A stretch of 64,000 nt of DNA. Source: Escherichia coli (GTDB lineage: Bacteria; Pseudomonadota; Gammaproteobacteria; Enterobacterales; Enterobacteriaceae). The number at the start of each line of letters is the position of its first letter. Position 1 is the stretch's first letter. The stretch lies in NCBI RefSeq assembly GCF_002854065.1, contig NZ_CP024154.1; one strand, given 5' to 3'. Below are positions 1 through 16,555 of this stretch, piece after piece. Position numbers and translations under genes: made by a program. The notes under the pieces were generated by a model, which searched no databases, was not told the DNA's origin, and saw nothing but the letters and a program-made list of their open reading frames with translations.

Positions 1-66
1 TATGCGGTCGCCCGGTAACAGGTGCGGCACGGCCTGATGGAGGCCGCATGTGAGAGGAGAATTCCC

Positions 67-993
67 ATGCCAAACTGGTGCTCGAATCGTATGTATTTTT
101 CTGGTGAACCGGCACAGATCGCTGAGATTAAACGACTGGCCAGCGGTGCAGTTACACCGCTTTATCGCCGCGCCACAAATGAAGGTATTCAGCTGTTTCT
201 GGCCGGAAGTGCCGGACTTCTGCAGACCACTGAAGATGTGTGGTTTGAACCGTGCCCCGGACTGACGGCTGCCGGACGTGGCGTTGTATCGCCGGAGAAT
301 ATCGCGTTCACCCGCTGGCTGACACACCTGCAGAACGGTGTACTGCTGGATGAGCAAAACTGCCTGATGCTGCATGAACTCTGGCTGCAGAGCGGTACTG
401 GCCAGCGTCGCTGGGAAGGATTACCGGACGATGTCAGGGATACCATCACCGCGCTTTTCACCGCAAAAAGAGGTGACTGGTGTGGCTTCTGGAGTAACGA
501 GGATGTATCGGTGTGGTGGAACCGTCTGTGTGACAACGTACTGCCGGAAAAAACCATGCCGTTTGACCTGCTGACGGTTCTGCCCACCCGCCTTGATGTT
601 GAAGTGAATGGCTTTAACGGTGGTGTTCTGAACGGTGTTCCTTCTGCATATCACTGGTATACCGAACAGTATGGCGTGAAGTGGCCTTGTGGGTATGACC
701 TGAATATCAGCAGTCAGGGAGACAACTTCATTCAGGTTGATTTCGACACGCCGTGGTGTCAGCCGGAAAGCGACGTTATTGCAGAATTAAGCCGCCGTTT
801 CAGCTGCACGCTGGAGCACTGGTATGCCGAACAGGGCTGTGATTTCTGTGGCTGGCAGTTGTATGAGCGCGGAGAGCTCGTTGATGTGCTGTGGGGGGAG
901 CTGGAATGGTCTTCCCCGACAGATGACGATGAGCTGCCGGAAGTCACCGGACCTGCGTGGATAGTCGACAATGTGGCGCATTATGGCGGATGA
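67..993 (+). CDS. conserved leading-region protein of unknown function (about 308 aa; ORF open from window start, preferred start ATG 67)
   Basis: Long ORF with SD-like GAGAGGAGAA about 8 nt upstream of ATG 67; Trp/Cys-rich acidic protein; no catalytic motif recognised. Confidence 0.5.
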   Translation: MPNWCSNRMYFSGEPAQIAEIKRLASGAVTPLYRRATNEGIQLFLAGSAGLLQTTEDVWFEPCPGLTAAGRGVVSPENIAFTRWLTHLQNGVLLDEQNCLMLHELWLQSGTGQRRWEGLPDDVRDTITALFTAKRGDWCGFWSNEDVSVWWNRLCDNVLPEKTMPFDLLTVLPTRLDVEVNGFNGGVLNGVPSAYHWYTEQYGVKWPCGYDLNISSQGDNFIQVDFDTPWCQPESDVIAELSRRFSCTLEHWYAEQGCDFCGWQLYERGELVDVLWGELEWSSPTDDDELPEVTGPAWIVDNVAHYGG

Positions 994-1378
994 AGTATGA
1001 CGGAGACGGGCGGGCAACCGCCCGTTTCTTTTCCGGTAAAGGATGTCGCCGTGCTCCTCTTTATTACTGCGCCGGCTGACGCGGCGCGGCATAAACGCTG
1101 CCTGTGGTCAGTGTCCCGCGTCCGGCCGGGCACGGGACGGGCGCTTTTACCGCTCCCGGCTGGCGTCGGTGACAGTGTACGCCAGCCTGTCGCCCTTTTC
1201 TGATGAACGCCCTTCAAGCCGCTTTCGCGGCATAACCTTGCCGTCAAACAGACGACGGCTGCGGTATTCCACGGTCGGCCTGACCCGTTACCGGACGCGG
1301 TGAACAGCCCACAGGCAGCGGGGAACGGGCACCACAGGGGTGCCCTCCCGGTGCCCTCTGTAAGAGAAGGAGTTTTGT

Positions 1379-2062
1379 ATGTCCCGTTTTGTCCTCGGTA
1401 ACTGCATCGATGTTATGGCCCGTATCCCTGATAACGCCATTGATTTCATCCTCACCGACCCGCCGTACCTCGTCGGTTTCCGTGACCGTTCCGGGCGCAC
1501 CATCGCTGGCGATAAAACCGATGAATGGCTGCAACCGGCCTGTAATGAAATGTACCGCGTACTCAAAAAAGATGCGCTGATGGTCAGCTTCTATGGCTGG
1601 AACCGCGTCGATCGCTTTGTGGCCGCCTGGAAAAATGCGGGATTCAGCGTGGTTGGTCACCTGGTCTTCACCAAAAACTACACATCGAAGGCCGCATATG
1701 TGGGCTATCGCCACGAATGCGCCTACATCCTGGCAAAAGGCCGTCCACGTCTGCCACAAAACCCGCTGCCGGACGTGCTGGGCTGGAAATATTCGGGCAA
1801 TCGCCATCACCCGACGGAAAAGCCCGTTACCAGCCTGCAACCGCTGATTGAGAGCTTCACACACCCGAACGCAATTGTGCTGGACCCGTTTGCAGGCAGC
1901 GGCTCAACCTGCGTCGCCGCCCTCCAGTCCGGACGCCGGTATATCGGTATCGAGCTGCTTGAGCAGTATCACCGTGCCGGGCAGCAACGCCTTGCCGCCG
2001 TGCAACGGGCCATGCAGCAGGGGGCCGCGAATGATGACTGGTTTATGCCGGAGGCTGCGTAA
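1379..2062 (+). CDS. orphan DNA methyltransferase (N6-adenine/N4-cytosine type)
   Basis: DPPY motif (ILTDPPYLVGF) followed by FAGSGST AdoMet-binding motif; SD AGAAGGAG upstream; no adjacent restriction endonuclease. Confidence 0.8.
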   Translation: MSRFVLGNCIDVMARIPDNAIDFILTDPPYLVGFRDRSGRTIAGDKTDEWLQPACNEMYRVLKKDALMVSFYGWNRVDRFVAAWKNAGFSVVGHLVFTKNYTSKAAYVGYRHECAYILAKGRPRLPQNPLPDVLGWKYSGNRHHPTEKPVTSLQPLIESFTHPNAIVLDPFAGSGSTCVAALQSGRRYIGIELLEQYHRAGQQRLAAVQRAMQQGAANDDWFMPEAA

Positions 2063-2284
2063 ATGAACTATGCCGGACACGAAAAACTGCGCGCCGAAGT
2101 GGCGGAGGTGGCCAATGCCATGTGCGACCTGCGTACAACCATGAATGAGATGGAGCAGCGGTACAGCTTTAATGCCGACACCCTGCCGGAACGTCTGGTG
2201 CGTCAGACGCTGTTTCGCGCAAACCGCCTCCTGATGGAGGCATATACCGAAATTCTGGAACTGGATGCGTGCTTTAAAGATTGA
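2063..2284 (+). CDS. hypothetical small protein (73 aa), start abuts the methyltransferase stop
   Basis: ATG immediately after the TAA of the upstream gene (TAAATG); ORF only. Confidence 0.4.
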   Translation: MNYAGHEKLRAEVAEVANAMCDLRTTMNEMEQRYSFNADTLPERLVRQTLFRANRLLMEAYTEILELDACFKD

Positions 2285-2297
2285 GAAGGAGACGAGA

Positions 2298-2732
2298 ATG
2301 TACGGAACATGCGAAACGCTATGCCGGGAGCTGGCAGCAAAGTATCCGGGAGACACGCCGCTGATGCTGGTTATCTGGTCCCCGGAAGAAATTCAGGCCC
2401 TCGCTGACGGAATGGATATTTCCCTGTCCGATCATGAAATCAGGACTGTCCTGGCGCGCCTGGAGGACATCCCGGAAGACCAGCGGACTGAATCCGGTAT
2501 TTCTTCCGGTGCGGCGATGGAGATTATCAAATACGTGAGCGAAAACCGCCAGGTGACCGTCCCTGCTGAACTGCTGGCGTCCCTGATTCAGACCGCTGAA
2601 CAGGCACTGTGGAAACGTGAGTGGGCCGCCCGTGATAACGGCCTCGCCGTTCCGGAATGCGTCACCCGCCGACAGGCGGTGGTTAATCAGGCCCGCGCCC
2701 TGCTGAAAAACAACACACGCGAAAACGACTGA
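2298..2732 (+). CDS. hypothetical leading-region protein (145 aa), paralog of ORF 4435-4857
   Basis: SD GAGAAGGAGA upstream of ATG 2298; shares MY.T..E and R.VTVPA motifs with the 4435 product. Confidence 0.55.
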   Translation: MYGTCETLCRELAAKYPGDTPLMLVIWSPEEIQALADGMDISLSDHEIRTVLARLEDIPEDQRTESGISSGAAMEIIKYVSENRQVTVPAELLASLIQTAEQALWKREWAARDNGLAVPECVTRRQAVVNQARALLKNNTREND

Positions 2733-2776
2733 TGTTATCGCCGCCTCCGGGCGGCGATACAGGGAGACCATGAATC

Positions 2777-3547
2777 ATGAACGAAACGCTGAATGCACTG
2801 ATTTGTCGCCACGCCCGTAACCTGCTGCTGGCGCAGGGCTGGCCGGAAGAGACGGATGTTGACCAGCGAAATCCGAACTATCCGGGCTGGATCAGCATTT
2901 ACGTGCAGCTGGATGCGCCCCGGCTGGCGACGTTACTCGTTAACCGCCACGATGGCGTGCTGCCGCCGCACCTGGCCTCCGCCATTCAGAAACTGACCGG
3001 AACCGTGGCGGAACTTGTACTGTCCGGCAGCCAGTGGCAGGCGCTGCCGGTACTTCCGGCAGACGGAACGCAGGTGTCTTTCCCGTATGCCGGTGAATGG
3101 CTGACGGAGGAAGAAATCAGGGCCGTTCTTGATGCGGTGCACGATGCGGTACGCAGTGTCAGTTGCCGGGTGGCAGAAGATGCGCGGCGTATCAGGGCGG
3201 CGCTGACCACAACCGGTCAGACGTTGCTGACCCGCCAGACGCGCCGCTTTCGCCTGGTTGTGAAGGAAAGCGATTACCCCTGCTGGCTCGATGAAGACGA
3301 CGAAAACCTGCCCGTGGTGCTCGATGCCATCCTGAACCGGGGCGCTCGTTTTTCGTCGGTGGAAATGTATCTGGTCAGTGAGTGTGTGGAGCATATCCTG
3401 TCCAGTGGGCTGGCCTGCGATGTGCTGCGTATACCTGATGAACCGTCCCGTCGCTGGTTTGACCGGGATATTCTGCGGGAGGTGGTCCTGGAAGCCCGGA
3501 CTGAAATCCGCAGCATGGCGGATGCACTGGCGAAAATCCGGAAATGA
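2777..3547 (+). CDS. hypothetical leading-region protein (256 aa)
   Basis: Long ORF with SD AGGGAGA upstream; no recognised motif. Confidence 0.5.
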
Positions 3548-3619
3548 TGACGCTGGCGGGGAAAAATCTCCGCCTTTTCCAGCCGGTCCCCGGAAAGAGC
3601 AAAAGGATGTCGCCGCAGG

Positions 3620-3945
3620 CTCCGCTTTACCCGGCCATGCGGGGCATGGCCTTGTGGGTTTTCAGTTATGTGGCCTCAGCGCCGTGTGCGGGCTGTGCCG
3701 TGCCTCCATCGTAGCCGGGCTTCTGCGGGCGGGTTGCAAGGTAAGGTGAACCGCTGCGGTCACCCGGTCCCTCCTTCCCGTCTGCCGTGATTTTCCGGTC
3801 GTTCACCCGCTCAGATTTCGCGGTCTCACCCTTCAACTCCCGTCAGCCGTGCGCGTCAGGCTGCGGCTTCCCTTGCGCCCTTGCAACCCTGCAGGCCCGG
3901 CAAAGATGGAGGCACGGCACCGCCCGGTGTCGCGGAATATGTGAA
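3620..3945 (+). repeat. repeat family A copy 1: about 330-bp hairpin-rich element, putative single-strand promoter (Frpo/ssi-like)
   Basis: About 95 percent identical to 10567-10892; contains perfect hairpin GGCCATGC-GGG-GCATGGCC; ends about 20 nt before the klcA start. Confidence 0.6.
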
Positions 3946-3962
3946 CAACGGAGGAAAACATC

Positions 3963-4388
3963 ATGCAATATGCGAAACCTGTCACTCTGAACGTTGAAGA
4001 GTGCGACCGTCTGTCTTTTCTGCCTTACCTGTTTGGCCTGGATTTTCTGTATGCCGAAGCGTCTGTATACGCGCTGGCGAAAAAAATGATGCCGGAATAT
4101 GAAGGCGGATTCTGGCACTTCATCCGCCTGCCGGACGGTGGCGGTTACATGATGCCGGATGGCGACCGTTTCCACATGGTGAACGGTGCAAACTGGTTTG
4201 ACCGTACCGTGAGTGCTGATGCCGCAGGCATCATCCTTACCTCCCTTGTGATTAACCGCCAGTTGTGGCTGTACCACGACAGCGGGGATGCAGGGTTGAC
4301 ACACCTGTACAGGATGCGTGATGCGCAGTTGTGGAGCCACATCGAATTTCACCCCGAATGCAACGCGATTTACGCGGCACTTGACTGA
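3963..4388 (+). CDS. klcA: anti-restriction protein, KlcA/ArdB family
   Basis: 141-aa protein with KlcA/ArdB-like sequence and size; SD GGAGGA upstream; leading-region context. Confidence 0.75.
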
Positions 4389-4434
4389 TTAACGGACGGG
4401 GCGGCAATGCCGCCCCTGTAAAGGAGACGAGAAC

Positions 4435-4857
4435 ATGTACTGTACTGTTAAAGAAATCATCCGCGATGTACTGGATACAGACGTGCCGGACAGTGAATGC
4501 GTTTTTGCCGTGGTGCTGACCCGTGGGGATGTGCGTCACATAGCCCGGGACTGGAACCTGTCAGACGATGAGCTGGAAACCGTCATGCAGCGGCTGGACG
4601 ATGCTTTTGTATATGGCGCATGTGACAGAGTTGTTTCCGATATTGTCAATGAACTGATGGAAGAAAAGCGCGCCAGCCGTCATGTGACAGTCCCGGCGGT
4701 GATGCTGGAAAAAGTGATGGCGCTGGCAGGTAGTGAAATGAAGCGCCTGTATGCCGTCGGGAGTGAGAACGGGGGCGACGGTGACGCATTCGTCAGGGAG
4801 GAACTCGAAGCAATGGACGTTGTGTTGCAGGCGCTGGACGGGGAGACGATGTCATGA
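4435..4857 (+). CDS. hypothetical leading-region protein (140 aa), paralog of ORF 2298-2732
   Basis: SD AAAGGAGA upstream; shared MY.T..E, LSD.E..TV..RL.D and R.VTVPA motifs with the 2298 product. Confidence 0.5.
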   Translation: MYCTVKEIIRDVLDTDVPDSECVFAVVLTRGDVRHIARDWNLSDDELETVMQRLDDAFVYGACDRVVSDIVNELMEEKRASRHVTVPAVMLEKVMALAGSEMKRLYAVGSENGGDGDAFVREELEAMDVVLQALDGETMS

Positions 4858-5045
4858 ATATCAGCACAGAAACCCGCGAAATTCTGCGTAATTACAGGGC
4901 CGTGATTAATGCGCGGCGTCGTGAAATGGGGCAGAAACCGCTCACCACCGCGCAGATTGTTGATGAAATCTGCGATTTTGTGGCGAATCAGCAGGCGGTT
5001 TTCCTGGGCGGTCACTACATCCTTCAGGGCAGCAGAAACAGGTGA
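4854..5045 (+). CDS. hypothetical small protein (63 aa), start overlaps upstream stop (ATGA)
   Basis: ORF with translational coupling only. Confidence 0.35.
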   Translation: MNISTETREILRNYRAVINARRREMGQKPLTTAQIVDEICDFVANQQAVFLGGHYILQGSRNR

Positions 5046-5248
5046 TACAGGGGCAGGCGGTGGAGGCCGCCTGTCAGCCCGCGCGAAAACCCCTGGCAGG
5101 CTGACGCCTGCCGGAAACGAGGGGGGCAGCGCCTGCGGCGCTGCCGGCCCGGCTTTCCGGTCAGAAGGTAGTGTATGGCTGTATGCAGGGAACAGGAGTG
5201 ATATTCCGTGACACTGTCACCGTTTCTGGCTGTCTTTTATTGCGCCCA

Positions 5249-5745
5249 CTTCGGCTCCCGGCTGCCTGGCGGCATCCGGTCGTCAGGCCCGACTCCGACG
5301 GGCAGCTGCTGGCGCACCCGCCAGTCTCCGCCGAACCCGCTGGCGCGGTTTCGGGCTGCCGCTACGGTCCGATGCGTGAAAACCCGGCTTGCAGCGACCG
5401 TTCCGGTCGCGCCGCCCCTGTCGCGCCGTGACCTGCGCTCCCTGCACACCTGACGGTGTGTGAGGAAACTGCGCCTGATGGCGCAGCAGTCCTCCCTCCT
5501 GCCGCCACTCCTGCGGCCTGTTTCCCGCTGTGGACTTTCCGGGGGGCAGACGTAACCCCCTCCCGTTCCATCTGTCCAGGGTGAGATGCACCGGCCACAA
5601 AATTTTTAGCCATGAACCCGGCAAAAAATTTTGCGTCCGCCCCCGGACAGCTGCCCCGTGAGGCGGTAAACGGGCCCCCATCGGAAAGGTCCACTGCGGG
5701 GAGAAACCCCTGTGAAGTGGACGGCAGGAGGAGCTTTCGCTCCTC
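5249..5745 (+). repeat. repeat family B copy 1: about 500-bp hairpin-rich element, putative single-strand promoter/ssi
   Basis: Near-identical to 11592-12090 and partially to 14681-15010; multiple perfect hairpins (GCGACCG-TTC-CGGTCGC, ACACC-TGAC-GGTGT); ends about 70 nt before ssb. Confidence 0.6.
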
Positions 5746-5814
5746 TGAAGGGGCACATGAACGTCCCGTCGCCGGTATCCGGTTTATCTCACATCTTTCA
5801 GTCAGGAGGTTCTT

Positions 5815-6342
5815 ATGAGTGCACGTGGTATCAACAAGGTCATCCTCGTCGGGCGTCTGGGCAATGATCCGGAAGTCCGTTACATCCCCAACGGGGGCGC
5901 AGTGGCAAACCTGCAGGTGGCTACGTCAGAAAGCTGGCGCGACAAACAGACGGGGGAAATGAAGGAACAGACGGAATGGCACCGCGTGGTGCTGTTCGGC
6001 AAGCTCGCGGAAGTGGCTGGCGAATATCTGCGCAAGGGCGCGCAGGTCTACATCGAGGGGCAACTCCGTACCCGTAGCTGGGAAGATAACGGTATCACCC
6101 GTTACGTCACTGAAATTCTTGTTAAGACCACGGGCACCATGCAGATGCTGGGGAGTGCACCACAGCAGAACGCTCAGGCGCAACCGAAGCCTCAGCAGAA
6201 TGGGCAGCCACAGAGTGCTGACGCGACGAAAAAAGGTGGCGCGAAAACGAAAGGCCGTGGACGTAAGGCCGCGCAGCCCGAGCCTCAGCCGCAAACGCCG
6301 GAGGGGGAGGATTACGGGTTTTCAGACGACATCCCGTTCTGA
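5815..6342 (+). CDS. ssb: plasmid single-stranded DNA-binding protein
   Basis: OB-fold SSB N-terminus ([18 protein letters not shown]), Gly/Gln/Pro-rich linker and acidic C-terminal DDIPF tail; SD AGGAGG. Confidence 0.92.
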
Positions 6343-6393
6343 TCGGGCTGACTGTGACAACCGCCCCGCCCTGTGCGGGGCATCACCGGAGAT

Positions 6394-6633
6394 ATGAGGA
6401 TGAGCGAATATTTCAGAATACTTCAGGGACTGCCGGACGGCTCCTTTACCCGCGAACAGGCGGAAGCCGTTGCCGCACAGTACCGGAACGTCTTTATCGA
6501 GGATGATCAGGGAACGCATTTTCGCCTGGTTGTCCGCAATAACAGTGGTCTGGTCTGGCGTACCTGGAATTTTGAGGACGGTGCCGGGTACTGGATGAAC
6601 CATGCCATCCGTGATTTCGGGATTCTTAAGTAA
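6394..6633 (+). CDS. hypothetical small leading-region protein (about 79 aa)
   Basis: ORF with ATG at 6394/6400 and purine-rich upstream sequence. Confidence 0.45.
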
Positions 6634-6691
6634 GAGAGGTGCCGGACGCGCGAACGTCCGGCAGGACATAAGCAATTATAAGGGGATGATT

Positions 6692-8650
6692 ATGCCTGTA
6701 ACGAAGTGTGAACCAGAAACCACCCGCAAAGCAAGCCGTAAATCTGCAAAAACGCAGGAAACTGTCCTGTCTGCCCTGCTGGCGCAGACGGAGGAAGTGA
6801 GCGTGCCGCTGGCCTCGCTGATTAAATCACCGCTGAATGTGCGCACGGTGCCGTATTCTGCGGAGTCCGTCAGCGAACTGGCTGAGTCCATTAAGGGCGT
6901 TGGCCTGTTGCAGAATCTGGTCGTGCATACTCTGCCTGGTGACCGTTACGGTGTCGCCGCAGGTGGTCGCCGACTGGCTGCACTCAACATGCTGGCAGAG
7001 CGTGGCATCATTCCGGCTGACTGGCCTGTCCGTGTGAAGGTCATTCCGCAGGAGCTGGCGACGGCGGCATCAATGACTGAAAACGGTCATCGTCGGGATA
7101 TGCACCCTGCTGAACAGATTGCCGGATTCCGCGCAATGGCGCAGGAAGGCAAAACACCTGCACAAATCGGTGATTTGCTGGGCTATTCACCCCGCCACGT
7201 TCAGCGAATGCTGAAACTGGCTGACCTTGCGCCTGTCATCCTCGATGCGCTGGCAGAAGACCGCATCACCACCGAACACTGTCAGGCGCTGGCGCTGGAG
7301 AACGACACCGCGCGTCAGGTGCAGGTGTTTGAAGCTGCCTGTCAGTCGGGATGGGGCGGAAAACCGGATGTGCGGGTTATCCGCAATCTGATTACGGAAA
7401 GTGAAGTGGCGGTGGCGGGGAACAGTAAATTCCGCTTCGTGGGGGCTGATGCCTTCTCGCCAGACGAACTGCGCACCGATTTGTTCAGCGACGACGAGGG
7501 TGGCTATGTGGACTGCGTGGCGCTCGATGCCGCCCTGCTGGAAAAACTCCAGGCTGTCGCAGAGTTCCTTCGGGAAGCCGAAGGCTGGGGATGGTGCGCC
7601 GGACGCATGGAGCCTGTCGGTGAGTGCCGTGAGGATGCCGGAACATACCGCAACCTGCCGGAGCCGGAAGCGGTGCTGACCGAGGCGGAAGAAGAACGTC
7701 TGAACGAACTGATGACGCGTTACGACGCGCTGGAAAACCAGTGTGAGGAATCTGACCTGCTGGAAGCAGAAATGAAGCTGATGCGCTGCATGGCGAAGGT
7801 CAGAGCGTGGACGCCGGAGATGCGTGCCGGAGGTGGCGTGGTGGTGTCCTGGCGTTATGGCAATGTGTGTGTCCAGCGTGGTGTGCAGTTGCGCAGTGAG
7901 GATGATGCGGCTGACGACGCTGACCGCACGGAACAGGTGCAGGAAAAAGCATCAGTGGAGGAAATCAGTCTGCCACTGCTGACGAAAATGTCTTCCGAAC
8001 GCACGCTGGCAGTCCAGGCAGCACTGATGCAGCAACCGGACAAATCCCTGACACTGCTGGCATGGACGCTCTGCCTGAATGTGTTTGGCAGCGGAGCGTA
8101 CAGTAAACCAGCACAAATCAGCCTGGAATGTAAACATTATTCGCTGACCAGCGATGCGCCATCGGGGAAGGAAGGTACCGCATTCATGGCGCTGATGGCA
8201 GAAAAAGCCCGTCTTGCTGCCCTGTTACCGGAGGGATGGTCACGGGACATGACGACATTCCTGTCACTCAGTCAGGAGGTGCTGTTATCCCTGCTGAGTT
8301 TCTGCACCGCATGCAGCCTTAACGGTGTCCAGACCCGTGAGTGTGGTCACACGTCACGCAGTCCGCTTGACACGCTGGAAACCGCTATCGGATTCCACAT
8401 GCGCGACTGGTGGCAGCCGACAAAAGCAAACTTCTTCGGACACCTGAAAAAGCCGCAGATTATCGCAGCTCTGAATGAGGCAGGACTGTCCGGTGCCGCA
8501 CGGGATGCGGAGAAGATGAAGAAAGGCGATGCGGCTGAACATGCAGAGTTCCACATGAAAGACAACTGCTGGGTGCCTGGCTGGATGTGTGCACCACGTC
8601 CACAGACGGATACCACTGAACGCACCGATAACCTGGCTGATGCCGCCTGA
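6692..8650 (+). CDS. ParB-like nuclease-domain protein (about 653 aa)
   Basis: N-terminal ParB/Srx-like region (LIKSPLNVR, GLLQNLVV, AGGRRLAAL, HRRDMHPAEQ); long acidic C-terminal extension; between ssb and psiB. Confidence 0.7.
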   Translation: MPVTKCEPETTRKASRKSAKTQETVLSALLAQTEEVSVPLASLIKSPLNVRTVPYSAESVSELAESIKGVGLLQNLVVHTLPGDRYGVAAGGRRLAALNMLAERGIIPADWPVRVKVIPQELATAASMTENGHRRDMHPAEQIAGFRAMAQEGKTPAQIGDLLGYSPRHVQRMLKLADLAPVILDALAEDRITTEHCQALALENDTARQVQVFEAACQSGWGGKPDVRVIRNLITESEVAVAGNSKFRFVGADAFSPDELRTDLFSDDEGGYVDCVALDAALLEKLQAVAEFLREAEGWGWCAGRMEPVGECREDAGTYRNLPEPEAVLTEAEEERLNELMTRYDALENQCEESDLLEAEMKLMRCMAKVRAWTPEMRAGGGVVVSWRYGNVCVQRGVQLRSEDDAADDADRTEQVQEKASVEEISLPLLTKMSSERTLAVQAALMQQPDKSLTLLAWTLCLNVFGSGAYSKPAQISLECKHYSLTSDAPSGKEGTAFMALMAEKARLAALLPEGWSRDMTTFLSLSQEVLLSLLSFCTACSLNGVQTRECGHTSRSPLDTLETAIGFHMRDWWQPTKANFFGHLKKPQIIAALNEAGLSGAARDAEKMKKGDAAEHAEFHMKDNCWVPGWMCAPRPQTDTTERTDNLADAA

Positions 8651-8704
8651 TGAACAACCACACCGCCCCGCCGGAGACGGGGCGGCAGCAAGGGAGATAC
8701 CGTG

Positions 8705-9139
8705 ATGAAAACTGAACTGACCCTGAATGTATTACAGACCATGAGTGCACAGGAATATGAAGATATCCGGGCTGCCGGAAGTGATGAACGCCGTGAGCTG
8801 ACACACGCCGTGATGCGGGAACTGGATGCGCCGGACAACTGGACGATGAATGGCGAGTACGGCAGCGAGTTCGGCGGCTTTTTCCCCGTCCAGGTCCGTT
8901 TCACGCCTGCCCACGAACGTTTTCACCTGGCGTTATGTTCACCGGGCGATGTCTCTCAGGTCTGGGTGCTGGTTCTGGTGAATGCCGGTGGTGAGCCGTT
9001 TGCGGTGGTTCAGGTGCAGCGGCGGTTTGCACCGGAAGCTGTCAGCCATTCACTGGCACTGGCGGCGTCACTGGATGCGCAGGGGTACAGCGTTAACGAC
9101 ATCATTCATATCCTGATGGCGGAAGGAGGTCAGGCATGA
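8705..9139 (+). CDS. psiB: plasmid SOS inhibition protein B
   Basis: 144-aa product; position immediately upstream of and overlapping psiA; SD AGGGAGA. Confidence 0.85.
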
Positions 9140-9855
9140 GCGCACGTTCACGGGCACTGATCCCCCTCAGCGCAGAACAACAGGCCGCCATGCAGGCGGT
9201 GGCTGTCACAGAACAACGTCGTCGTCAGGGACGCACACTTTCAGCATGGCCTTATGCCACCGCTTTCTTTCGCTGCCTGAATGGCAGTCGCCGGATTTCG
9301 CTGACCGATCTCCGCTTTTTTGCCCCTGCGCTGACGAAGGAGGAATTTCATGGCAACCGTCTCCTGTGGCTGGCTGCCGTGGATAAACTGATTGAAAGTT
9401 TTGGGGAAGTCTGTGTTCTTCCCCTGCCATCCGATGCGGGGCACCGTCTGTTCCCGTCCCTGCCTTTTCGTGAAGGTGAGCGTCGTCGTCAGAAAACCAC
9501 GCTGACAGAGCAGAAATACAGCCGCCAGCGGGAACGTGAGGCAGAACGACGGGAACTGGAATACCAGACATGTTTTGCTCAGGCGCAGATTGACCTTGCG
9601 TTTCATACTCCCGCCACGGTCGGAAGCTGGTTGTCCCGCTGGTCTGGTGTTGTTGAGGAGCATGATCTGGAAACGATTTTCTGGGGGTGGTGCGGGCGTT
9701 TTCCATCACTGTCATCATTTGACCGGTTTTTCTGGCAGGAGGAACCACTCTGGCGGCTGATTTTTGAAGCCGGTGAGGCCGGTCGTGGTGCACCGGTACA
9801 GGTACGTGCACTTGAGCAGTGGATGATCCCGAACAAGCTGGAGAACGTAATATGA
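9136..9855 (+). CDS. psiA: plasmid SOS inhibition protein A
   Basis: 239-aa product, start overlaps psiB stop (ATGA); typical psiB-psiA pair. Confidence 0.85.
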
Positions 9856-10448
9856 TGAAATCAGACGAAAAATACCAGGTTCCCGCGTGGATGCGACCTC
9901 TGTTGCCGTTGCTCTGCAACACCGGGGGGAACGATCCGGAAGAACTGCTGAATGATACAGAAACCACTGCCAGTGCGAATGTTGTCCGTTATGTACTGAT
10001 AGTTGCTGTGCGGTCGCAGGTTGATCTGCTGCAGCTTCTGTACAGGAAAGGGCTGTTGCGCACAGAGATACCAGGTGGCTTTTCACCGGAAGAAGCGCAG
10101 GCACTCCTGGATAATCTGGTGCGCAGCCATATCAGCAGGGCGCTGTCGGGCGAGCGAATGGCAGCCCGTGACAGAAATGCCGATCTGGCCTGGATTGGAC
10201 AGCAACTGGTCGATGCCGCCTGGTTTGTCCGTGCCACACTGGAAGCGCATGGGATGAGCGTCGGAAATGAGAGCCCCCCTGCTCCGCCGGAGACAATGCC
10301 GGACATACAGACACGGGAACTGGTTATGTTGATCAAGCGACTGGCATCATCGCTGAAAGCGGTGAAACCCGACAGTAGCGTGGTGCGTGAAGCGCAGGAC
10401 TGGCTGTGCGACAGAAAACTTGTGGATATCACAGATATTCTCCGGTGA
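9852..10448 (+). CDS. hypothetical leading-region protein (198 aa)
   Basis: ATG 9852 overlaps psiA stop; SD GGAGAA upstream; no recognised motif. Confidence 0.5.
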   Translation: MMKSDEKYQVPAWMRPLLPLLCNTGGNDPEELLNDTETTASANVVRYVLIVAVRSQVDLLQLLYRKGLLRTEIPGGFSPEEAQALLDNLVRSHISRALSGERMAARDRNADLAWIGQQLVDAAWFVRATLEAHGMSVGNESPPAPPETMPDIQTRELVMLIKRLASSLKAVKPDSSVVREAQDWLCDRKLVDITDILR

Positions 10449-10566
10449 ACCAGACATGTATATTTTACGCAGGGACACGCCGATCATGATCGTTTCATAT
10501 CAGGGGTGGTCTGGAGGTCATGCGGCGTGTCCTCTGCACTCGCCGGAATAAGGAAGTCGCCGGCGG

Positions 10567-10892
10567 CTCCGCTTTTACCCGGCCATGCGGGGCATGGCCT
10601 TGTGGGTTTTCAGTTATGTGGCCGCCGTGTCGTGTGCGGGCTGTGCCGTGCCTCCATCGTAGCCGGGCTTCTGCGGGCGGGATGCAAGGTAAGATGAACC
10701 GCTGCGGTCACCCGGTCCCTCCTTCCCGTCTGCCGTGATTTTCCGGTCGTTCACCCGCTCAGATTTCGCGGTCTCACCCTCCAACTCCCGTCAGCCGTGC
10801 GCGTCGGGCTGCGGCTTTCCTTGCGCCCTTGCATCCCTGCAGGCCCGGCAAAGATGGAGGCACGGCACCGCCCGGTGTCGCAGAACATGTGA
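10567..10892 (+). repeat. repeat family A copy 2, putative single-strand promoter
   Basis: About 95 percent identical to 3620-3945; ends immediately upstream of the ardA SD. Confidence 0.6.
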
Positions 10893-10909
10893 CTATGGAG
10901 GATTCGGGA

Positions 10910-11410
10910 ATGTCTGTTGTTGCACCTGCTGTATACGTTGGAACCTGGCACAAATACAACTGTGGAAGCATCGCCGGACGCTGGTTTGACCTGACCACGT
11001 TTGATGATGAGCGCGACTTTTTCGCCGCCTGCCGTGCTCTTCACCAGGATGAAGCCGATCCTGAACTGATGTTTCAGGATTATGAGGGATTCCCGGGGAA
11101 TATGGCCTCTGAATGTCATATCAACTGGGCCTGGGTTGAAGGCTTCCGCCGGGCACGGGATGAAGGCTGCGAAGAGGCTTATCGTCTCTGGGTGGATGAT
11201 ACCGGTGAGACGGATTTTGACAGCTTCCGCGATGCCTGGTGGGGCGAGGCTGACAGTGAGGAGGCTTTTGCGGTTGAGTTCGCCAGTGATACCGGCCTGC
11301 TGGCTGACGTGCCGGAGACGGTGGCGCTCTATTTTGACTATGAGGCGTATGCGCGGGATTTATTCCTGGACTCCTTCACCTTTATTGACGGTCATGTGTT
11401 CCGTCGGTGA
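10910..11410 (+). CDS. ardA: anti-restriction protein ArdA (DNA mimic)
   Basis: 166-aa highly acidic protein (MSVVAPAVYVGTWHKYNCGSIAGRWFDL...); SD GGAGGA; leading-region position. Confidence 0.88.
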   Translation: MSVVAPAVYVGTWHKYNCGSIAGRWFDLTTFDDERDFFAACRALHQDEADPELMFQDYEGFPGNMASECHINWAWVEGFRRARDEGCEEAYRLWVDDTGETDFDSFRDAWWGEADSEEAFAVEFASDTGLLADVPETVALYFDYEAYARDLFLDSFTFIDGHVFRR

Positions 11411-11591
11411 TTTACTCCCCCGCTCCGGCGGGGGTATGGCCTGCCAGGCCGCCGGAAAACCCTGGCAGGCTTACGCCTGCCTGAAATGCAGGAGGGCCGC
11501 GCCTGCGGCGCTGCCCTTCCTGCCCGTCATGGTGTGAGGCATTTTTCTGTTATGTCGTTTCTGTTGTTCTGATTTCCGGAGGCGGGGACAC

Positions 11592-12090
11592 CTTCGGCTC
11601 CCGGCTGCCTGGCGGCATCCGGTCGTCAGGCCCGACTCCGACAGGCAGCTGCTGGCGCACCCGCCAGTCTCCGCCGAACCCGCTGGCGCGGTTTCGGGCT
11701 GCCGCTACGGTCCGATGTCTGAAAAACCAGGCTTGCAGCGACCGTTCCGGTCGCGCCGCCCCTGTCGCGCCGGAAACGGCGCTCCCTGCACACCTGACGG
11801 TGTGTAAGGCCACTGCGCCTGATGGCGCAGTTGTCTGCCCTTCCGCCGCCCCCCCTGCGGCCTGTTTCCCCGCTGTGGACTTTCCGGGGGCTGAAGCGGC
11901 CACAACACGTTTCAGCCGTCCAGGGGAGAGATGTACCAGCCACAAAACTTTTTGCCGCAGGCGTCAAAAACTTTTGCGTCTGCCCCCGGACAACTGCCCC
12001 GTGCCGTGGCAGTCGCTGCCCTATCGGAAAGGTCCACTGCGGGGAGAAACCCCGAAGAAGTGGACGGCAGAAGGGGCTTTCGCCCCTCCG
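11592..12090 (+). repeat. repeat family B copy 2, putative single-strand promoter
   Basis: Near-identical to 5249-5745; ends about 50 nt before ORF 12143. Confidence 0.6.
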
Positions 12091-12142
12091 GGGGAGCAAC
12101 CGGTCGGCCCGGCGACCTGATTCAGCAGAAGGAGACGTTTTC

Positions 12143-12577
12143 ATGACAGTCAGCAGCACGATTTCCGTTTTTTGCCGCGACGGGGTGTTCCGTACCGTTT
12201 ACTGCCACCTGCACGGTGAGCCGACCTGGAACGGTCGCATCCTGCATACCCACTATGCCACTGGTCAGCAGGCCGAAGCCCTGGTTGAACACGGTGATAT
12301 CCGTTGCCTCGGTCCCCGTTGCGACAAACCCGCCGGGCATACGCTTCAGAACCCGGTGGACGGTGTGACGGCTTATTACGGACGTGACAGTGGTTTCCGG
12401 ATGGACAGTGAGGCGCGTGAGTACCGTTCTTTCAGGGAGGCCATCGCCACGGAAAGCACTGAAGAGGTGCGCTTCCATTATGTGTTCATCGACGGCTACT
12501 GGAAGGTGATGTACCGCACGCCGGAAGGCTGGAAGATGAAGTCGCTTGCGCTGGCACTGCGCCGCTGTCCGAAATGA
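12143..12577 (+). CDS. hypothetical protein (144 aa) directly downstream of repeat B2
   Basis: SD AAGGAG 7 nt upstream of ATG; Cys/His-containing; rho-independent terminator hairpin downstream (about 12579-12606). Confidence 0.55.
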   Translation: MTVSSTISVFCRDGVFRTVYCHLHGEPTWNGRILHTHYATGQQAEALVEHGDIRCLGPRCDKPAGHTLQNPVDGVTAYYGRDSGFRMDSEAREYRSFREAIATESTEEVRFHYVFIDGYWKVMYRTPEGWKMKSLALALRRCPK

Positions 12578-12669
12578 AAAAAAGGCAGGGCGATAAACCC
12601 TGCCTCTCTCCGCCGCTGCTTCCCGGCCAGGAAGAGCGGCAGTCATCAACAACATAAGGAGAAATATTT

Positions 12670-12936
12670 GTGAGACCATCAATTATCTTTGCAACGGCTG
12701 AATATGTAAAGCGTCTGCGTGAAGAGTGCCTGCGGGAGAATAAACCCCTGCACCGCCATACCCGCTTCAGACGTCAGGAGCTGGCACAGGATGAGATTAA
12801 CCCGGACGTCCTGGCGATGAGCAGTCATATCGCCAGACGCTGCAGTAAGCAGAAGCGGGTGCGTATCCCCGCGATGAAAGCCAGCGAATGGGGCCACCTG
12901 CTCCGCGCGCTTGAAATTGAGCGGGTCTGCCACTGA
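12670..12936 (+). CDS. hypothetical small basic protein (88 aa, GTG start)
   Basis: ORF only; Arg/Lys-rich. Confidence 0.3.
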   Translation: MRPSIIFATAEYVKRLREECLRENKPLHRHTRFRRQELAQDEINPDVLAMSSHIARRCSKQKRVRIPAMKASEWGHLLRALEIERVCH

Positions 12937-13000
12937 TTAACCCTTGCCGTCTGCCTGTGCAGGCGGCAGGATACGTTCAGACATCTCACCAGGAGGAACC

Positions 13001-13951
13001 GTGAGTAAGAAGAAAAACACCACAACGCCCACGCCGCATGATGCCGCGTTCCGGTCGTTCCTGGCGAATCCCGACGTTGCCAGGGATTTTCTGGAACTGC
13101 ATCTTCCTGCGGAGCACCGGCAGTTGTGCGACCTGTCCACGCTGAAGCTGGAACCCGCCACCTTTGTTGAGCCGGACCTGCATCAGTACGCCAGCGATAT
13201 CCTCTGGAGCGTGAAAACCACCGGGGGTGAAGATGGTTATGTTTATACGCTCATCGAGCACCAGAGCACAGAAAATCTGTACATGCCTTTTCGCATGTTA
13301 CGCTACAGTGTGGCGGCGATGCAGAGACATCTGGAGCAGCACAAAACGTTGCCACTGGTGATTCCGGTGCTGTTCTATCACGGTGAGCGCAGCCCGTACC
13401 CGTACAGCATGAACTGGCTGGACTGTTTTGAGAATCCGGCACTTGCGGCTAAAATATACACAAAGCCGTTTCCGCTGGTTGATATCACTGTCGTTGATGA
13501 CAATGAAATCATGAACCATCGCCGGATGGCCGCACTGACGCTGCTGATGAAGCATATCCGCCATCGTGACATGATGGAGCTGCTGGACAAACTCCCGCAG
13601 GTCATGGTGGAAATTTCAGATGAACAGGTGCGTGTTCTGATTCATTACATCGTTAACGCAGGGGACTCTGTATCACCGGAATTTATGCGGGCGCTGGCTG
13701 AGCGTCTGCCGCAGCATGAGGATAAACTGATGACTATCGCAGAACGTCTTGAGCAAAAAGGTCGCCAGGAAGGCAGGATGGAAGGACGCATGGAAGGACG
13801 CATGGAAGGACGCATGGAAGGACGCATGGAAGGAGCGCTTGAAAAAGCCCTGGCTATTGCGTGCCAGCTTCAGAAAATGGGGATGACGCCGGAGCAGATT
13901 AAGCAGGCTACCGGACTTTCCGATGACGAACTGAAGAACATCACTCACTGA
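13001..13951 (+). CDS. Rpn-family (YhgA-like, transposase_31) PD-(D/E)XK recombination-promoting nuclease
   Basis: N-terminal YhgA-like motifs (HDAAFRSF, ASDILW, YTLIEHQS); SD CAGGAGGA before GTG 13001; C-terminal tail carries (EGRM)n repeat; terminator hairpin at about 13963-13990. Confidence 0.75.
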   Translation: MSKKKNTTTPTPHDAAFRSFLANPDVARDFLELHLPAEHRQLCDLSTLKLEPATFVEPDLHQYASDILWSVKTTGGEDGYVYTLIEHQSTENLYMPFRMLRYSVAAMQRHLEQHKTLPLVIPVLFYHGERSPYPYSMNWLDCFENPALAAKIYTKPFPLVDITVVDDNEIMNHRRMAALTLLMKHIRHRDMMELLDKLPQVMVEISDEQVRVLIHYIVNAGDSVSPEFMRALAERLPQHEDKLMTIAERLEQKGRQEGRMEGRMEGRMEGRMEGRMEGALEKALAIACQLQKMGMTPEQIKQATGLSDDELKNITH

Positions 13952-14013
13952 TGAGAACCACAAAGCCCGGCAAAATGCCGGGTTTTTTTGTCAGCAGGAG
14001 CAGAGCAAACAGC

Positions 14014-14196
14014 ATGACGATTGCAGAACGTCTTATACAGAAAGGTTTCGACGAAGGTTTTAAGAAAGGTGCGCTTGAAGTGGCGCGGGAAGCAGCCTGC
14101 CGGCTGCGGGATATGGGCTGGACGCCGGAACGGATTCAGGAGGCAACCGGACTTTCCGGTGAAGAACTGAAAAAGCTGTTTCCTGATGAGCAGTAG
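14014..14196 (+). CDS. free-standing paralog of the Rpn C-terminal tail domain (60 aa)
   Basis: MTIAERLIQKG...TPERIQEATGLSGEELKKLF aligns with the Rpn tail MTIAERLEQKG...TPEQIKQATGLSDDELKNI; weak SD; hairpin terminator downstream. Confidence 0.45.
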   Translation: MTIAERLIQKGFDEGFKKGALEVAREAACRLRDMGWTPERIQEATGLSGEELKKLFPDEQ

Positions 14197-14226
14197 CCTG
14201 GCATTCTGCCAGGCTGTGAATCACGC

Positions 14227-14478
14227 TCACACATTCCCTGCCGTTTCCCCCAGTTCATTTTCCAGTCGCCTGATGATATCTGCCTTACGCATCCCCTGCA
14301 TGTGAGGCAGCAGGTCACGGACTGAAAGTGCCTGGGTGGTCCTCCAGACGGTGACATCCACCTGTTCCGCATTTTCCCAGGCGTGCCATGTTCTCTGTGT
14401 CACGCCAAATTCTCTGGCCGCTTTTTCGCGTGACCAGAGCATGCTTTTTCGCCAGATTCGCAGTTCCCAGCCGGTCAT
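14227..14478 (-). CDS. helix-turn-helix (XRE/Cro-like) transcriptional regulator (83 aa)
   Basis: HTH signature SREKAAREFGVTQRTWHAWE; AT-rich upstream region with GTGAA-N5-TTCAC inverted repeat. Confidence 0.55.
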   Translation of the reverse strand: MTGWELRIWRKSMLWSREKAAREFGVTQRTWHAWENAEQVDVTVWRTTQALSVRDLLPHMQGMRKADIIRRLENELGETAGNV

Positions 14479-14680
14479 AAAACACCTTTGAAAAAGTGAA
14501 AAAACTTCACTTTATTTTATCATCATAGTCACCAAGTCAGCGCGATAAATAAGAGTGAAAAAGTAAAGAAATTTCATTTTTTTTAGTTGTAGGTGTCGTG
14601 CTGTTTTCTCTGTTTTCACCTGTGCGGGAGTGGGCGTCAGTGACCACCACATGCCATTGTTGTGCCGTCGTTTTTCTTCA

Positions 14681-15010
14681 GTCGCGCCGGATGCGGCGCT
14701 CCCTGCACACCTGACGGTGTGTAAGGCCACTGCGCCTGATGGCGCAGCTGTCTCTGCCTGTCTGCCGCCGCACTGCGGCCTGTTCTCCGCAGACGGACTT
14801 TCCGGGGGTGCATACACGACCACATCCCGTTTCAGTCGTCCAGGGGAGAGATGTACCAGCCACAAAACTTTTTACCGCAGGCGTCAAAAACTTTTGCGTC
14901 TGCCCCCGGACAACTGCCCCGTGACGTGGTGAGCGTCCCCCGTCGGAAAGGTCCACTGCGGGGAAATCCCCGAAGACCCGGACGGCAGAAGGAGCTTCGC
15001 TCCTCCGGGA
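14681..15010 (+). repeat. repeat family B copy 3 (5'-truncated), putative single-strand promoter
   Basis: Matches the 3' two-thirds of copies B1/B2; ends about 45 nt before ORF 15057. Confidence 0.55.
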
Positions 15011-15056
15011 AATGACCTGGCTGACCCGGCAGTCGTGACGATGAGGAGACAATGTG

Positions 15057-15905
15057 ATGAATCAGACTTTACCCACTGCTGACCTGAATACTGCCGGCAC
15101 GACAGATGTTATTCTGTCTGTGGCTATCGACCGCATCATAGCGCAGCGTAACGAAGGTATTGCACTGTTCATGCAGGCGATGGAATGCCTGGCGACAGCG
15201 CGCAGGATTCTGCTCGATGCTTCCGGTGACATTTTTCTCTACGGGTTTGAAGACTGCGTGACTGACTCCGTTCGGTGCATGGATAAACCGGAAGAAGCAA
15301 AAAAGAATATCACCCGTCTTGCCGACCGGAAAATCTGGGATCGCCTGATGACGGATACTGGCATGTACACCTTCATGAGTTCATGCCAGCGTGATGAGTG
15401 GAACAGCCAGCTGATGAGCGACACCTGTCCTGAAATCACCCTGGACAATGTACTGGCAACTTTTCGCTATCTGAATGCCAGCAAGATGCGGACGTTTGAA
15501 CAGGGACTGATTGATGTCTGGCGGAAATTGTCATGGGATTACAGAACCAATAATCCCTGCCGTCTGGGCAAGAAAATCATTATTGAAAACCTGCTGTACC
15601 GCTGGAGTAACGGGCGTGTGACGCTGGACTGCAGCGGACGGGAGGCACTGGATGACCTGGTATGTCCGTTTTATCTACTGGAGGGACGCAACGTTCCTGA
15701 CTTCAGGAACAGCATCGGGGCGCAGTATGGTGAATATCTCGGGAACGGCGATAATGTCGGTAAGCTGTTAGAAGGGGAATATTTTACGGTGCGTGGCTAC
15801 CAGAAAGGGACCGTACACATTGTCTTTAAGCGTCCTGACCTTGTTGAAAAACTGAATGATATTATTGCACGGCATTATCCTGGTGCATTGCCGCCACGAG
15901 TCTGA
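15057..15905 (+). CDS. hypothetical protein (283 aa); oriT-proximal plus-strand gene of the leading region
   Basis: SD GAGGAG 7 nt upstream of ATG 15057; directly behind repeat B3; terminator hairpin at about 15911-15945. Confidence 0.55.
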   Translation: MNQTLPTADLNTAGTTDVILSVAIDRIIAQRNEGIALFMQAMECLATARRILLDASGDIFLYGFEDCVTDSVRCMDKPEEAKKNITRLADRKIWDRLMTDTGMYTFMSSCQRDEWNSQLMSDTCPEITLDNVLATFRYLNASKMRTFEQGLIDVWRKLSWDYRTNNPCRLGKKIIIENLLYRWSNGRVTLDCSGREALDDLVCPFYLLEGRNVPDFRNSIGAQYGEYLGNGDNVGKLLEGEYFTVRGYQKGTVHIVFKRPDLVEKLNDIIARHYPGALPPRV

Positions 15906-15989
15906 TTAAACAGAAAAGCCCTGGTATTTATGCCGGGGCTTTTTTTCTGTAATCATCATAATCTCAGAACACGATGTGACATTGTCACA

Positions 15990-16545: not shown

Positions 16546-16555
16546 GGAGCAGACC

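Follow-up and report, generated by a model that had tools for sequence, protein, structure and literature searches.

The window, i.e. the whole stretch of 64,000 nucleotides of Escherichia coli contig NZ_CP024154.1 that was analysed here, carries at 1379-2284 two genes that follow each other on the plus strand. The first (1379..2062, ATG start) is an ORF of 227 aa for a DNA methyltransferase, an ortholog of M.EcoGIX from plasmid pESBL, of YfbB from R64 and of YfeA from F. The second (2063..2284, ATG start) encodes a small protein of 73 aa belonging to the YubE family, named YfcA in R64 and Hp9 in pESBL.

The methylase gene and its junction with YubE

The initial annotation had proposed a DPPY-type methyltransferase at this position, and both the extent of the ORF and the motif proved exact: the catalytic motif IV, DPPY (residues 27-30), was located in the sequence by motif search and is encoded at 1457..1468 of the plus strand. 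FAGSG (residues 171-175), encoded at 1889..1903 on the same strand, is motif I, which binds AdoMet; it was recognised by motif search and by comparison with solved enzymes of the beta class such as CcrM and RsrI. The motif search also placed a PTEKP at residues 145-149. Motif IV is therefore N-terminal to motif I, which is the order of the beta class (beta permutation). The protein matches Pfam PF01555 (N6_N4_Mtase; E=3.8e-40, residues 21-201 on profile positions 1-219 of 221), NCBIfam NF010253 (PRK13699; E=1e-150, 499.6 bits against a cutoff of 244) and the PADLOC model MTase_II PDLC03228 (E=3.2e-144). From these features we assign it as a minimal beta-class N6-adenine enzyme, member of the M.EcoGIX family. 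With its catalytic motifs intact it is predicted to be active, and not the inactive methyltransferase that had been considered as a counter-indication to a protective role.

The pESBL enzyme (E. coli O104:H4; NC_018659.1, 54782-55465) has the same length of 227 aa and the same motifs, and 216 of 227 residues are identical (95% amino acid identity). All 11 substitutions in the window enzyme are confined to residues 75-127, leaving every motif intact. This segment is probably the part likeliest to contact DNA, and a shift of specificity with respect to M.EcoGIX may have occurred. Concerning more distant enzymes, the solved N6/N4 methylases of the beta class, CcrM and M.RsrI among them, share with the window enzyme the order of IV before I, the DPPY and the (H/N)PT.KP...FxGSG pattern; however they are 250-370 aa long, contain a target-recognition domain and act at defined double-strand sites, whereas the window enzyme has only 227 aa and falls far under their cutoffs. 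DpnA, the second methylase of the pneumococcal DpnII locus, acts on single-stranded DNA, is induced by the entry of foreign single strands and protects from restriction. It is located in a restriction-modification locus, is site-specific (GATC) and competence-induced, and, unlike the system proposed here, it has no hairpin promoter on the incoming strand as inducer. Solved chains named DpnA share with our methylase the motif X-I region (residues 142-205, E ~7e-12), and since the alignment is limited to this C-terminal motif region, DpnA belongs to a different branch of the family.

The junction between the two genes reads GCG TAA ATG, with the methylase stop codon at 2060-2062 and the YubE start codon at 2063-2065, without any gap, exactly as the initial annotation had it. 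A GGAGG Shine-Dalgarno sequence for YubE (2050..2054, plus strand) is found 8 nt upstream of the ATG, inside the last methylase codons (PEAA). Diverged plasmids keep the internal GGAGG, and in them stop and start are either abutting (TAAATG) or share one base. The earlier proposal that the two genes are co-translated is better expressed as co-transcription with probable translational coupling, on the basis of this conservation of the GGAGG and of the stop/start arrangement in diverged homologs; YubE would thus probably be made from the methylase transcript by coupled translation.

Operon, leading region and upstream hairpin

YubE comes second in an operon of four genes whose order is the same in pESBL, pN600 and IncF plasmids. 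The third gene (2298..2732, plus strand) encodes a DUF1380 protein, YfcB in R64 and Hp10 in pESBL, which matches PF07128 (E=1.1e-53) and is accompanied by an AAGGAG at 2286-2291. The fourth and last (2777..3547, plus strand) encodes a 256-aa protein, YfdA in R64 and Hp11 in pESBL, recognised by synteny and by its match to phrog_8919 (unknown function; E=8.3e-137). Farther along the leading region, on the same strand, lie the genes for KlcA (3963-4388), ssb (5815-6342), a ParB-like protein (6602-8650), psiB/psiA (8702-9855) and ardA (10829-11410). All leading-region genes are on the plus strand and point to the oriT/nikA-relaxase region, in which nikA and the relaxase occupy 16448-19611 and homology to pESBL places oriT itself at ~16459-16541; these neighbours and their orientation bear out the assignment of the locus to a leading region. 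The pESBL methylase gene has the same leading-region position and orientation and is followed by the same genes, i.e. Hp9/YubE (100% identical), DUF1380 and YfdA. The two plasmids differ in type, pESBL being assigned by MOB-suite to IncI-gamma/K1, whereas the backbone of the window plasmid is IncK2/Z-like. About 24 kb of the plasmid lie beyond the window and were judged from its relatives alone.

A terminator-like hairpin with a U-run is found upstream of the methylase at 1002..1029 (plus strand; RNA fold -23.7 kcal/mol, z -4.17, then UUUCUUUUCC), and it would end the upstream DUF1281 gene and separate the methylase operon as its own unit. It is followed by a large conserved stem-loop at 1054..1372 on the minus strand, which is the transferred (template) strand. 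This putative single-strand promoter is the homolog of the pESBL 'class 3' promoter of M.EcoGIX, for which a start site determined by 5'RACE has been published (PMC12672017). The 385-bp spacer upstream of the methylase is ~98% identical to the pESBL hairpin promoter region, and the DNA fold of 994-1378 reaches -107.1 kcal/mol (z -7.25). The two strands fold about equally (-107.1 vs -105.5 kcal/mol), and the fold offers no choice of strand. In the consensus structure derived from 8 loci of diverged plasmids, 22 of the 102 pairs show compensatory changes; shuffles gave 4.5+/-1.8 and slid controls 1-3. The promoter scan of 900-4000 returned no match to a double-strand sigma-70 promoter, and no Rfam family was matched in 1-17000. 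We predict that a single-strand hairpin promoter of 'class 3' precedes the methylase. At the other end of the operon, a weak terminator-like hairpin (3555..3574, plus strand; RNA fold -16.3 kcal/mol, with z of just -1.61) lies between the last gene and the next hairpin promoter, which occupies 3603-3955 ahead of klcA and has a repeat copy at 10550-10902.

Probable action of the methylase on plasmid entry

Experimental knowledge on this family comes from pESBL M.EcoGIX. In PMC7736820 it is described as an enzyme that methylates single-stranded DNA promiscuously, giving m6A in a relaxed SAY context, and the same source attributes a single-strand m6A activity in SAY context also to M.BceJIII of Burkholderia cenocepacia plasmid pBCA072. 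M.BceJIII is likewise plasmid-borne and of the beta class; it belongs to another genus and another plasmid, and the likeness is drawn from the published description. The modification made by M.EcoGIX involves one strand, is incomplete and is preferentially directed to single-stranded substrate, the gene is silent in its native host, and a DPPY-to-APPA change abolishes activity (PMC7736820). Knockout of the gene reduces the transfer of pESBL into recipients bearing EcoGIII or EcoRI by up to ~1000-fold (PMC4288162). Protection from restriction needs the native orientation of oriT on entry, which indicates expression in the recipient (PMC7736820). [quoted passage not shown] The suggestion of a protective, early-expressed methylase made in the initial annotation agrees with these experiments on a 95%-identical ortholog (PMC4288162, PMC7736820, PMC12672017), and by analogy with it single-strand specificity, zygotic induction and protection from restriction are probably properties of the window allele as well.

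On this basis the following course of events can be proposed. The minus strand of the window would enter the recipient 5'-to-3' from oriT (~16.5 kb), which would place the methylase region ~15 kb behind the nick. Before synthesis of the complementary strand, 1054-1372 would fold into a long stem-loop acting as promoter for the host RNA polymerase, and a single transcript would span the methylase, YubE, the DUF1380 protein and the 256-aa protein. The methylase would act on the single strand with very little sequence selectivity (SAY context, partial occupancy), and a fraction of the sites recognised by type II restriction in the recipient would therefore already be hemimethylated when the plasmid becomes double-stranded. 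In double-stranded DNA the hairpin promoter would no longer form and the operon would become silent, a step that would explain why plasmids in established hosts are found without the methylation. We assign a probability of about 0.9 to this explanation as a whole, which includes the identification of 1379-2284 as genes one and two of the M.EcoGIX operon, borne in its leading region by a conjugative plasmid of the IncI complex (IncK2/Z-like).

Two different roles for the methylase were weighed against this one. The enzyme could be half of a restriction-modification system with its endonuclease elsewhere on the plasmid, since PADLOC assigns it to generic 'Type II methyltransferase' models and the ~24 kb beyond the window could hold such a gene. 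However, none of the flanking genes (DUF1281, YubE, DUF1380 and YfdA) matched a PADLOC model, Pfam and PADLOC identified the window's nuclease-like ORFs as Rpn, SNase and a TnsA_N/sigma-70 r4 protein, with no restriction enzyme family among them, and no restriction gene appears in the full annotation of two complete relatives, pESBL and CP056607.1, the latter being the closest complete plasmid. Moreover M.EcoGIX is without a defined recognition site and offers none for a cognate enzyme to share (PMC7736820). A restriction partner is thus largely refuted and very improbable, and the orphan status claimed by the initial annotation holds for the adjacent genes, the window and CP056607.1. Alternatively the methylase could be a regulator of Dam or CcrM type, expressed vegetatively and acting epigenetically on double-stranded plasmid or host DNA; orphan methylases are often regulators, and a beta-class fold and motifs are common to our enzyme and CcrM. 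This role also appears quite improbable, because the protein scores far under the cutoff of the CcrM model (85 vs 830 bits), the hairpin promoter lies upstream where no double-strand promoter was matched, and the ortholog has the silence in the native host and the partial, one-strand, single-strand-preferring activity already described (PMC7736820). Protection during entry remains the preferred role. As for a possible second methylase, the DUF4942 protein near oriT was considered as a candidate and gave no sequence match in the PDB.

Of 5426 complete E. coli genomes, 3371 (62%) carry the methylase-YubE pair. It is a real, very common and ordinary plasmid feature, already known, to which the window adds one more allele. 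Few anti-restriction devices are commoner than the methylase on resistance plasmids of the IncI and IncF types. The small residual value of the locus lies in YubE, which is equally widespread, clearly under selection and conserved across plasmids, N15-like phages and an integrative element.

Nature and possible role of YubE

YubE of the window is 100% identical to the pESBL copy and matches phrog_4830 ('unknown function') over its whole length (E=3.9e-34, residues 1-73 of 73). The Pfam family PF27407, 'YubE', is precomputed for clusters 99-100% identical to it. That the ORF might be fortuitous, or part of a 3' UTR, was taken into account, as it finds no match in the local Pfam, NCBIfam and PADLOC libraries (the local Pfam copy being one without PF27407) and is non-essential in pESBL TnSeq. 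Against this, dN/dS is 0.07-0.24 with dS up to more than 1, indicating purifying selection, and the length of relatives is strictly 73 aa down to ~32% identity, with conserved ends (MNY..G at the N-terminus and F.D at the C-terminus). The ORF also has its own Shine-Dalgarno sequence and a confident AF2 model, and two families, PF27407 and phrog_4830, both curated, include it. As far as sequence evolution goes, a non-coding origin is already refuted, and its chances are practically nil. The AF2 model is a two-helix hairpin (helices 7-32 and 41-72, mean pLDDT 91), and the protein is mildly acidic (net charge ~-4, pI 4.9). Foldseek against the PDB returned generic helical hairpins alone (best E=0.73), and a profile search of 1.84 billion representatives gave 130 family members, many of them fragments, with no link to a characterised family. 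The pattern search on viral contigs was based on a four-sequence subset, the full diverse alignment being without a sufficiently conserved stretch. We also considered whether YubE is a known type of anti-restriction protein (ArdA, KlcA/ArdB or an Ocr-like DNA mimic) and rejected it, since there is no profile or fold match and the charge, only ~-4, falls short of the strongly acidic surface that marks DNA mimics. Among the papers searched, none treats the function of YubE, YfcA or Hp9, in agreement with the initial annotation, which assigned no role to the 73-aa ORF; both genes had already been named and the methylase already characterised.

Our best guess, held with a little better than even confidence, is that YubE is a separate factor of early establishment or anti-defence and not a subunit of the methylase. 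The M.EcoGIX ORF cloned without its neighbours is active in vivo (PMC7736820), and therefore YubE is dispensable for catalysis. The opposite arrangement, in which the single-strand methylase has YubE as an accessory subunit or a regulator, kept at a fixed ratio by translational coupling and, for example, targeting the enzyme to single strands bound by SSB or PolI or limiting its activity, is possible, if rather unlikely. It draws on the junction, with its conserved internal GGAGG and abutting or overlapping stop and start, and on the finding that all plasmid lineages examined carry a PF01555 methylase immediately upstream of YubE. In addition, purified M.EcoGIX is reported to lose its activity, with an apparent need for a partner (PMC7736820). 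In N15-like phages, moreover, a different PF01555 methylase of 353 aa is located ~550 bp downstream of a YubE homolog, and this near-universal adjacency in plasmids and phages speaks for some functional link and weakens the guess of an independent factor. Nevertheless, besides the activity of the methylase ORF alone, several observations speak against a subunit. YubE diverges far faster than the methylase (37% against 83% identity at locus L014); a widespread Salmonella lineage has a broken methylase (IS110, frameshifts) next to an intact YubE; in an integrative element YubE is present with no PF01555 gene within 4 kb; and gp50/gp51 of N15 and phiKO2 are set apart from the methylase by a late promoter and a terminator. 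A model of the methylase-(GGGGS)6-YubE fusion (AF2, pTM 0.56, mean pLDDT 67) gave no sign of confident docking, and the YubE part decreased to ~81, values to be read with the shallow alignment of 10 paired sequences in mind. A more speculative and unlikely proposal is that YubE, far from being a passive passenger, is a fast-evolving partner of the DNA-modification enzymes of mobile elements, or else an unrecognised anti-defence protein acting on entry; it could then tune or target single-strand methylation, or neutralise a host factor in the single-strand phase.

YubE occurs near PF01555 methylases in two unrelated gene orders, that of plasmid leading regions and that of N15-like telomere phages. 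In the gp50-gp51-gp52 genes of N15 and Gp50-Gp52 of phiKO2, gp50 is a 73-aa YubE homolog (phrog_4830) with the PF01555 methylase gp52 nearby on the same strand. Compared with the window, their order is reversed, a winged-helix gene is interposed, and the late promoter and terminator between them are annotated. In N15 the methylase is annotated with 284 aa, in phiKO2 with 353 aa, and the 353-aa methylase of a related locus (L017) gives a local match alone with the window enzyme, at ~25-51% identity. In the integrative element, a PAPS-reductase-like gene comes first, then an 88-aa ORF, and YubE follows as the second gene downstream.

The methylase and its published ortholog

The methylase ORF (1379-2062, plus strand, ATG start, 227 aa) has its motifs in beta-class order, DPPY (residues 27-30), PTEKP (145-149) and FAGSG (171-175), and it matches Pfam PF01555 (E=3.8e-40), confirming the DPPY-type methyltransferase proposed in the initial annotation. 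NCBIfam NF010253 (PRK13699) also matches over the full length (E=1e-150; score 499.6 bits, family cutoff 244), and the PADLOC model MTase_II PDLC03228 matches too. Compared with M.EcoGIX of pESBL (NC_018659.1, 54782-55465), 216 of the 227 residues are the same (95%); the 11 differences are confined to residues 75-127, with no change in the motif regions. Most silent differences from M.EcoGIX also fall in the corresponding segment, 1600-1760, with nearly identical flanks, and other plasmids have different patchworks. At the sequence level, the pattern in codons 75-127 suggests recombination among alleles in the part likeliest to contact DNA. PMC4288162 treats the R64 protein YfbB (94% identity) and the F protein YfeA (91%) as equivalents of M.EcoGIX.

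The proposal of a protective, early-expressed methylase is supported by published work on this ortholog. PMC7736820 describes M.EcoGIX as promiscuous, placing m6A on single strands at ~40% of sites in a SAY context and only on one of the two strands; there the enzyme is silent in its native host and inactive after a DPPY-to-APPA change. When M.EcoGIX is deleted, transfer of pESBL to recipients with EcoGIII or EcoRI drops by up to ~1000-fold (PMC4288162). In PMC12672017, RNA-seq of transconjugants finds six leading-region operons very strongly induced at 15 min. One of the six is the M.EcoGIX operon, whose start site was mapped by 5'RACE to a new type of single-strand promoter, 'class 3'. Leading regions have orphan methylases as one of their most prominent gene families (PMC11541004). 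All that was first proposed for the methylase is already published for the 95%-identical ortholog, as is the promoter; the feature is already known and its interpretation supported.

Concerning the absence of a cognate endonuclease, no restriction enzyme family match was found among the neighbours of the methylase, and neither complete relative, pESBL or CP056607.1, has an annotated restriction gene. The only nuclease-like ORFs in the window encode an Rpn/YhgA-like protein (12944-13951), a staphylococcal-nuclease homolog (26916-27383, minus strand) and a 528-aa protein (30103-31689, minus strand). The last joins a TnsA-like endonuclease N-terminal domain (TnsA_N) to a sigma-70 region 4 helix-turn-helix and matches no recognised defence model; its gene is found between the Hok/Gef region and excA. 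Judged on the 64-kb window and its relatives, with ~24 kb of the plasmid lying outside the window, orphan status is very likely rather than proven.

The leading region and its structured elements

The window is 99.99% identical to the IncK2/Z plasmid CP056607.1 over 31168-64000 and 99.3% over 13794-31167, whereas 1-13027 is only ~95-96% identical to CP056607.1, pESBL and an IncI1/B/O plasmid. From these values we regard it as part of a conjugative plasmid of the IncI complex whose leading region has diverged somewhat. The two parts, 1-13027 and 13794-64000, make the plasmid a mosaic joined near 13 kb.

From position 1 to ~16.9 kb, DUF1281 is followed by blocks that each begin with a hairpin: methylase, YubE, DUF1380 and a 256-aa ORF; KlcA, a DUF1380-like gene and a 63-aa ORF; ssb, DUF905, a ParB-like gene, psiB, psiA and one more ORF; and ardA with more genes, including Rpn and DUF4942. 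Then come oriT, nikA and the relaxase. All leading-region genes point towards oriT, which homology to the pESBL oriT given in PMC4288162 places at ~16459-16541. It follows that the minus strand is the one transferred and serves as template for the leading genes; the methylase lies ~15 kb behind the nick. The DUF4942 protein (283 aa, 15054-15905, plus strand), encoded just before oriT on the leading-gene strand, gave no sequence match in the PDB and might be a candidate for the uncharacterised leading-region families discussed in PMC11541004.

The 385-bp spacer before the methylase (994-1378) is ~98% identical to that of pESBL. Folded as single-stranded DNA, its transferred strand reaches -107.1 kcal/mol (shuffles -78.8+/-3.9 kcal/mol, z -7.25), and the opposite strand folds almost equally (-105.5 kcal/mol). 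We aligned the homologous spacers of eight loci, two of them diverged (L009 and L014). In the consensus fold, 22 of 102 pairs stay paired through changes on both sides; column shuffling gave 4.5+/-1.8 such pairs, never reaching 22 in 500 trials, and sliding the partners by 1-3 columns gave 1-3. By these controls the structure, which spans ~1054-1372, is selected and not a by-product of G+C content. No double-strand sigma-70 promoter was matched within 900-4000. Terminator-like hairpins stand at both ends of the methylase unit, a strong one (1002-1029) at the close of the preceding gene and a weak one (3555-3574) after the fourth gene, and these borders fit the unit being one of the six operons of PMC12672017.

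Related plasmids annotate a ~103-aa 'hypothetical protein' across the hairpin promoter (e.g. 8991-9302 in the related locus L001). In the window (997-1303), 1-nt indels break this ORF into two, of 68 and 86 aa, that lie in different frames; the structured non-coding element has probably been misannotated as a gene. The leading region also holds two families of repeated non-coding elements. A pair (3603-3955 and 10550-10902), upstream of klcA and ardA, cross-matches its counterparts in related plasmids at ~87-96% identity; a trio (5249-5745, 11592-12088 and 14678-15009), upstream of ssb and at two further sites, does so at ~83-90%. The pESBL counterparts of pair and trio have been described as its class 2 and class 1 (ssi/Frpo) single-strand promoters.

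YubE as a gene

Beyond the published methylase, the remaining point of interest is what YubE does. The 73-aa ORF (2063-2284) is 100% identical to the gene after M.EcoGIX in pESBL, Hp9 (O3K_25852, WP_001104879.1), which TnSeq found non-essential for maintenance and transfer (PMC4288162). An R64-like plasmid has it annotated as yfcA, the protein collection places it in Pfam PF27407 (label YubE), and it matches phrog_4830 ('unknown function', E=3.9e-34); we found no literature on its function as YubE, YfcA or Hp9. Pairwise dN/dS is 0.07-0.24 (dS 0.5 to >1), and relatives down to ~32% identity keep exactly 73 residues, an N-terminal MNY.G and a C-terminal F.D. AlphaFold2 (21 sequences) predicts, with mean pLDDT 91, a hairpin of two helices (residues 7-32 and 41-72). 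Constraint, fixed length with kept ends and the predicted fold together show that this is a real gene. The protein is predicted to be soluble and mildly acidic (pI ~5, net charge ~-4). Foldseek against the PDB returned generic helical hairpins only (best E=0.73), and a profile search of 1.84 billion representatives gave just 130 members and no tie to a known family.

The ORF does start directly after the methylase stop, with the junction GCG TAA ATG and no spacer, and GGAGG (2050-2054) lies within the last methylase codons, 8 nt before the YubE ATG. Among methylases of 225-227 aa, stop and start abut (TAAATG) or have one base in common, and GGAGG is retained inside the conserved C-terminal PEAA codons; the shorter methylases of 214 aa end earlier, with a separate 18-33-nt spacer. 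The kept junction and GGAGG make co-transcription, with probable translational coupling in place of the co-translation suggested initially, well supported by sequence.

YubE and the methylase

Weighing the evidence for and against a functional link, we weakly favour YubE as a separate early-entry factor that is co-expressed with the methylase. That it is a subunit or regulator of the enzyme seems unlikely, even if gene order speaks for it: in ten of ten plasmid loci examined (L009, L010, L011, L012, L014/L015, L016, L029, L032, L033 and L030, the last cut by a contig end) YubE directly follows a PF01555 methylase gene or what remains of one, and N15-like telomere phages keep a 73-aa homolog, then a winged-helix gene, then a PF01555 methylase, an order holding in N15, phiKO2 and eight IMG/VR loci. 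However, the methylase ORF is active in vivo on its own in PMC7736820, and YubE diverges much faster than the methylase (37% versus 83% identical in L014). YubE is also intact in a widespread lineage of Salmonella plasmids, found in 837 indexed blocks of the collection, where an IS110 insertion and frameshifts disrupt the methylase. In the integrative element L031, YubE lies close to DUF3085 and a PAPS-reductase-like gene, and no PF01555 gene occurs within 4 kb; in N15 and phiKO2 a late promoter and terminator are annotated between gp51 and the methylase. A fused methylase-linker-YubE model (pTM 0.56), built from only 10 paired sequences and without PAE output, gave no sign of docking.

The phage homologs are gp50 of N15 and Gp50 of phiKO2 (L028), with further loci L017-L026; the N15 locus is L027, 40661-42475. 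In this conserved trio the winged-helix protein has 75-77 aa and the methylase 353 aa in phiKO2, IMG/VR and Logan loci, although it is annotated as 284 aa in N15. In the Salmonella contigs (L006-L008, locus positions 5086-6222), YubE comes directly after the methylase pseudogene. The homolog at L031 4001-4222, in an integrative element within a 355-kb contig, belongs to an ICE-like ssb region with the order AcaB, DUF3158, SSB, PAPS-reductase-like gene, 88-aa ORF, YubE and DUF3085; 3 kb downstream is the gene for a DUF6094 protein that weakly resembles methyltransferases.

The 1.8-kb segment 1000-2800 occurs at >=90% identity in at least 5000 plasmid records. The two-gene methylase-YubE segment is present in 3371 of 5426 complete E. 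coli genomes, where 4637 of its 4693 placements are on plasmids.
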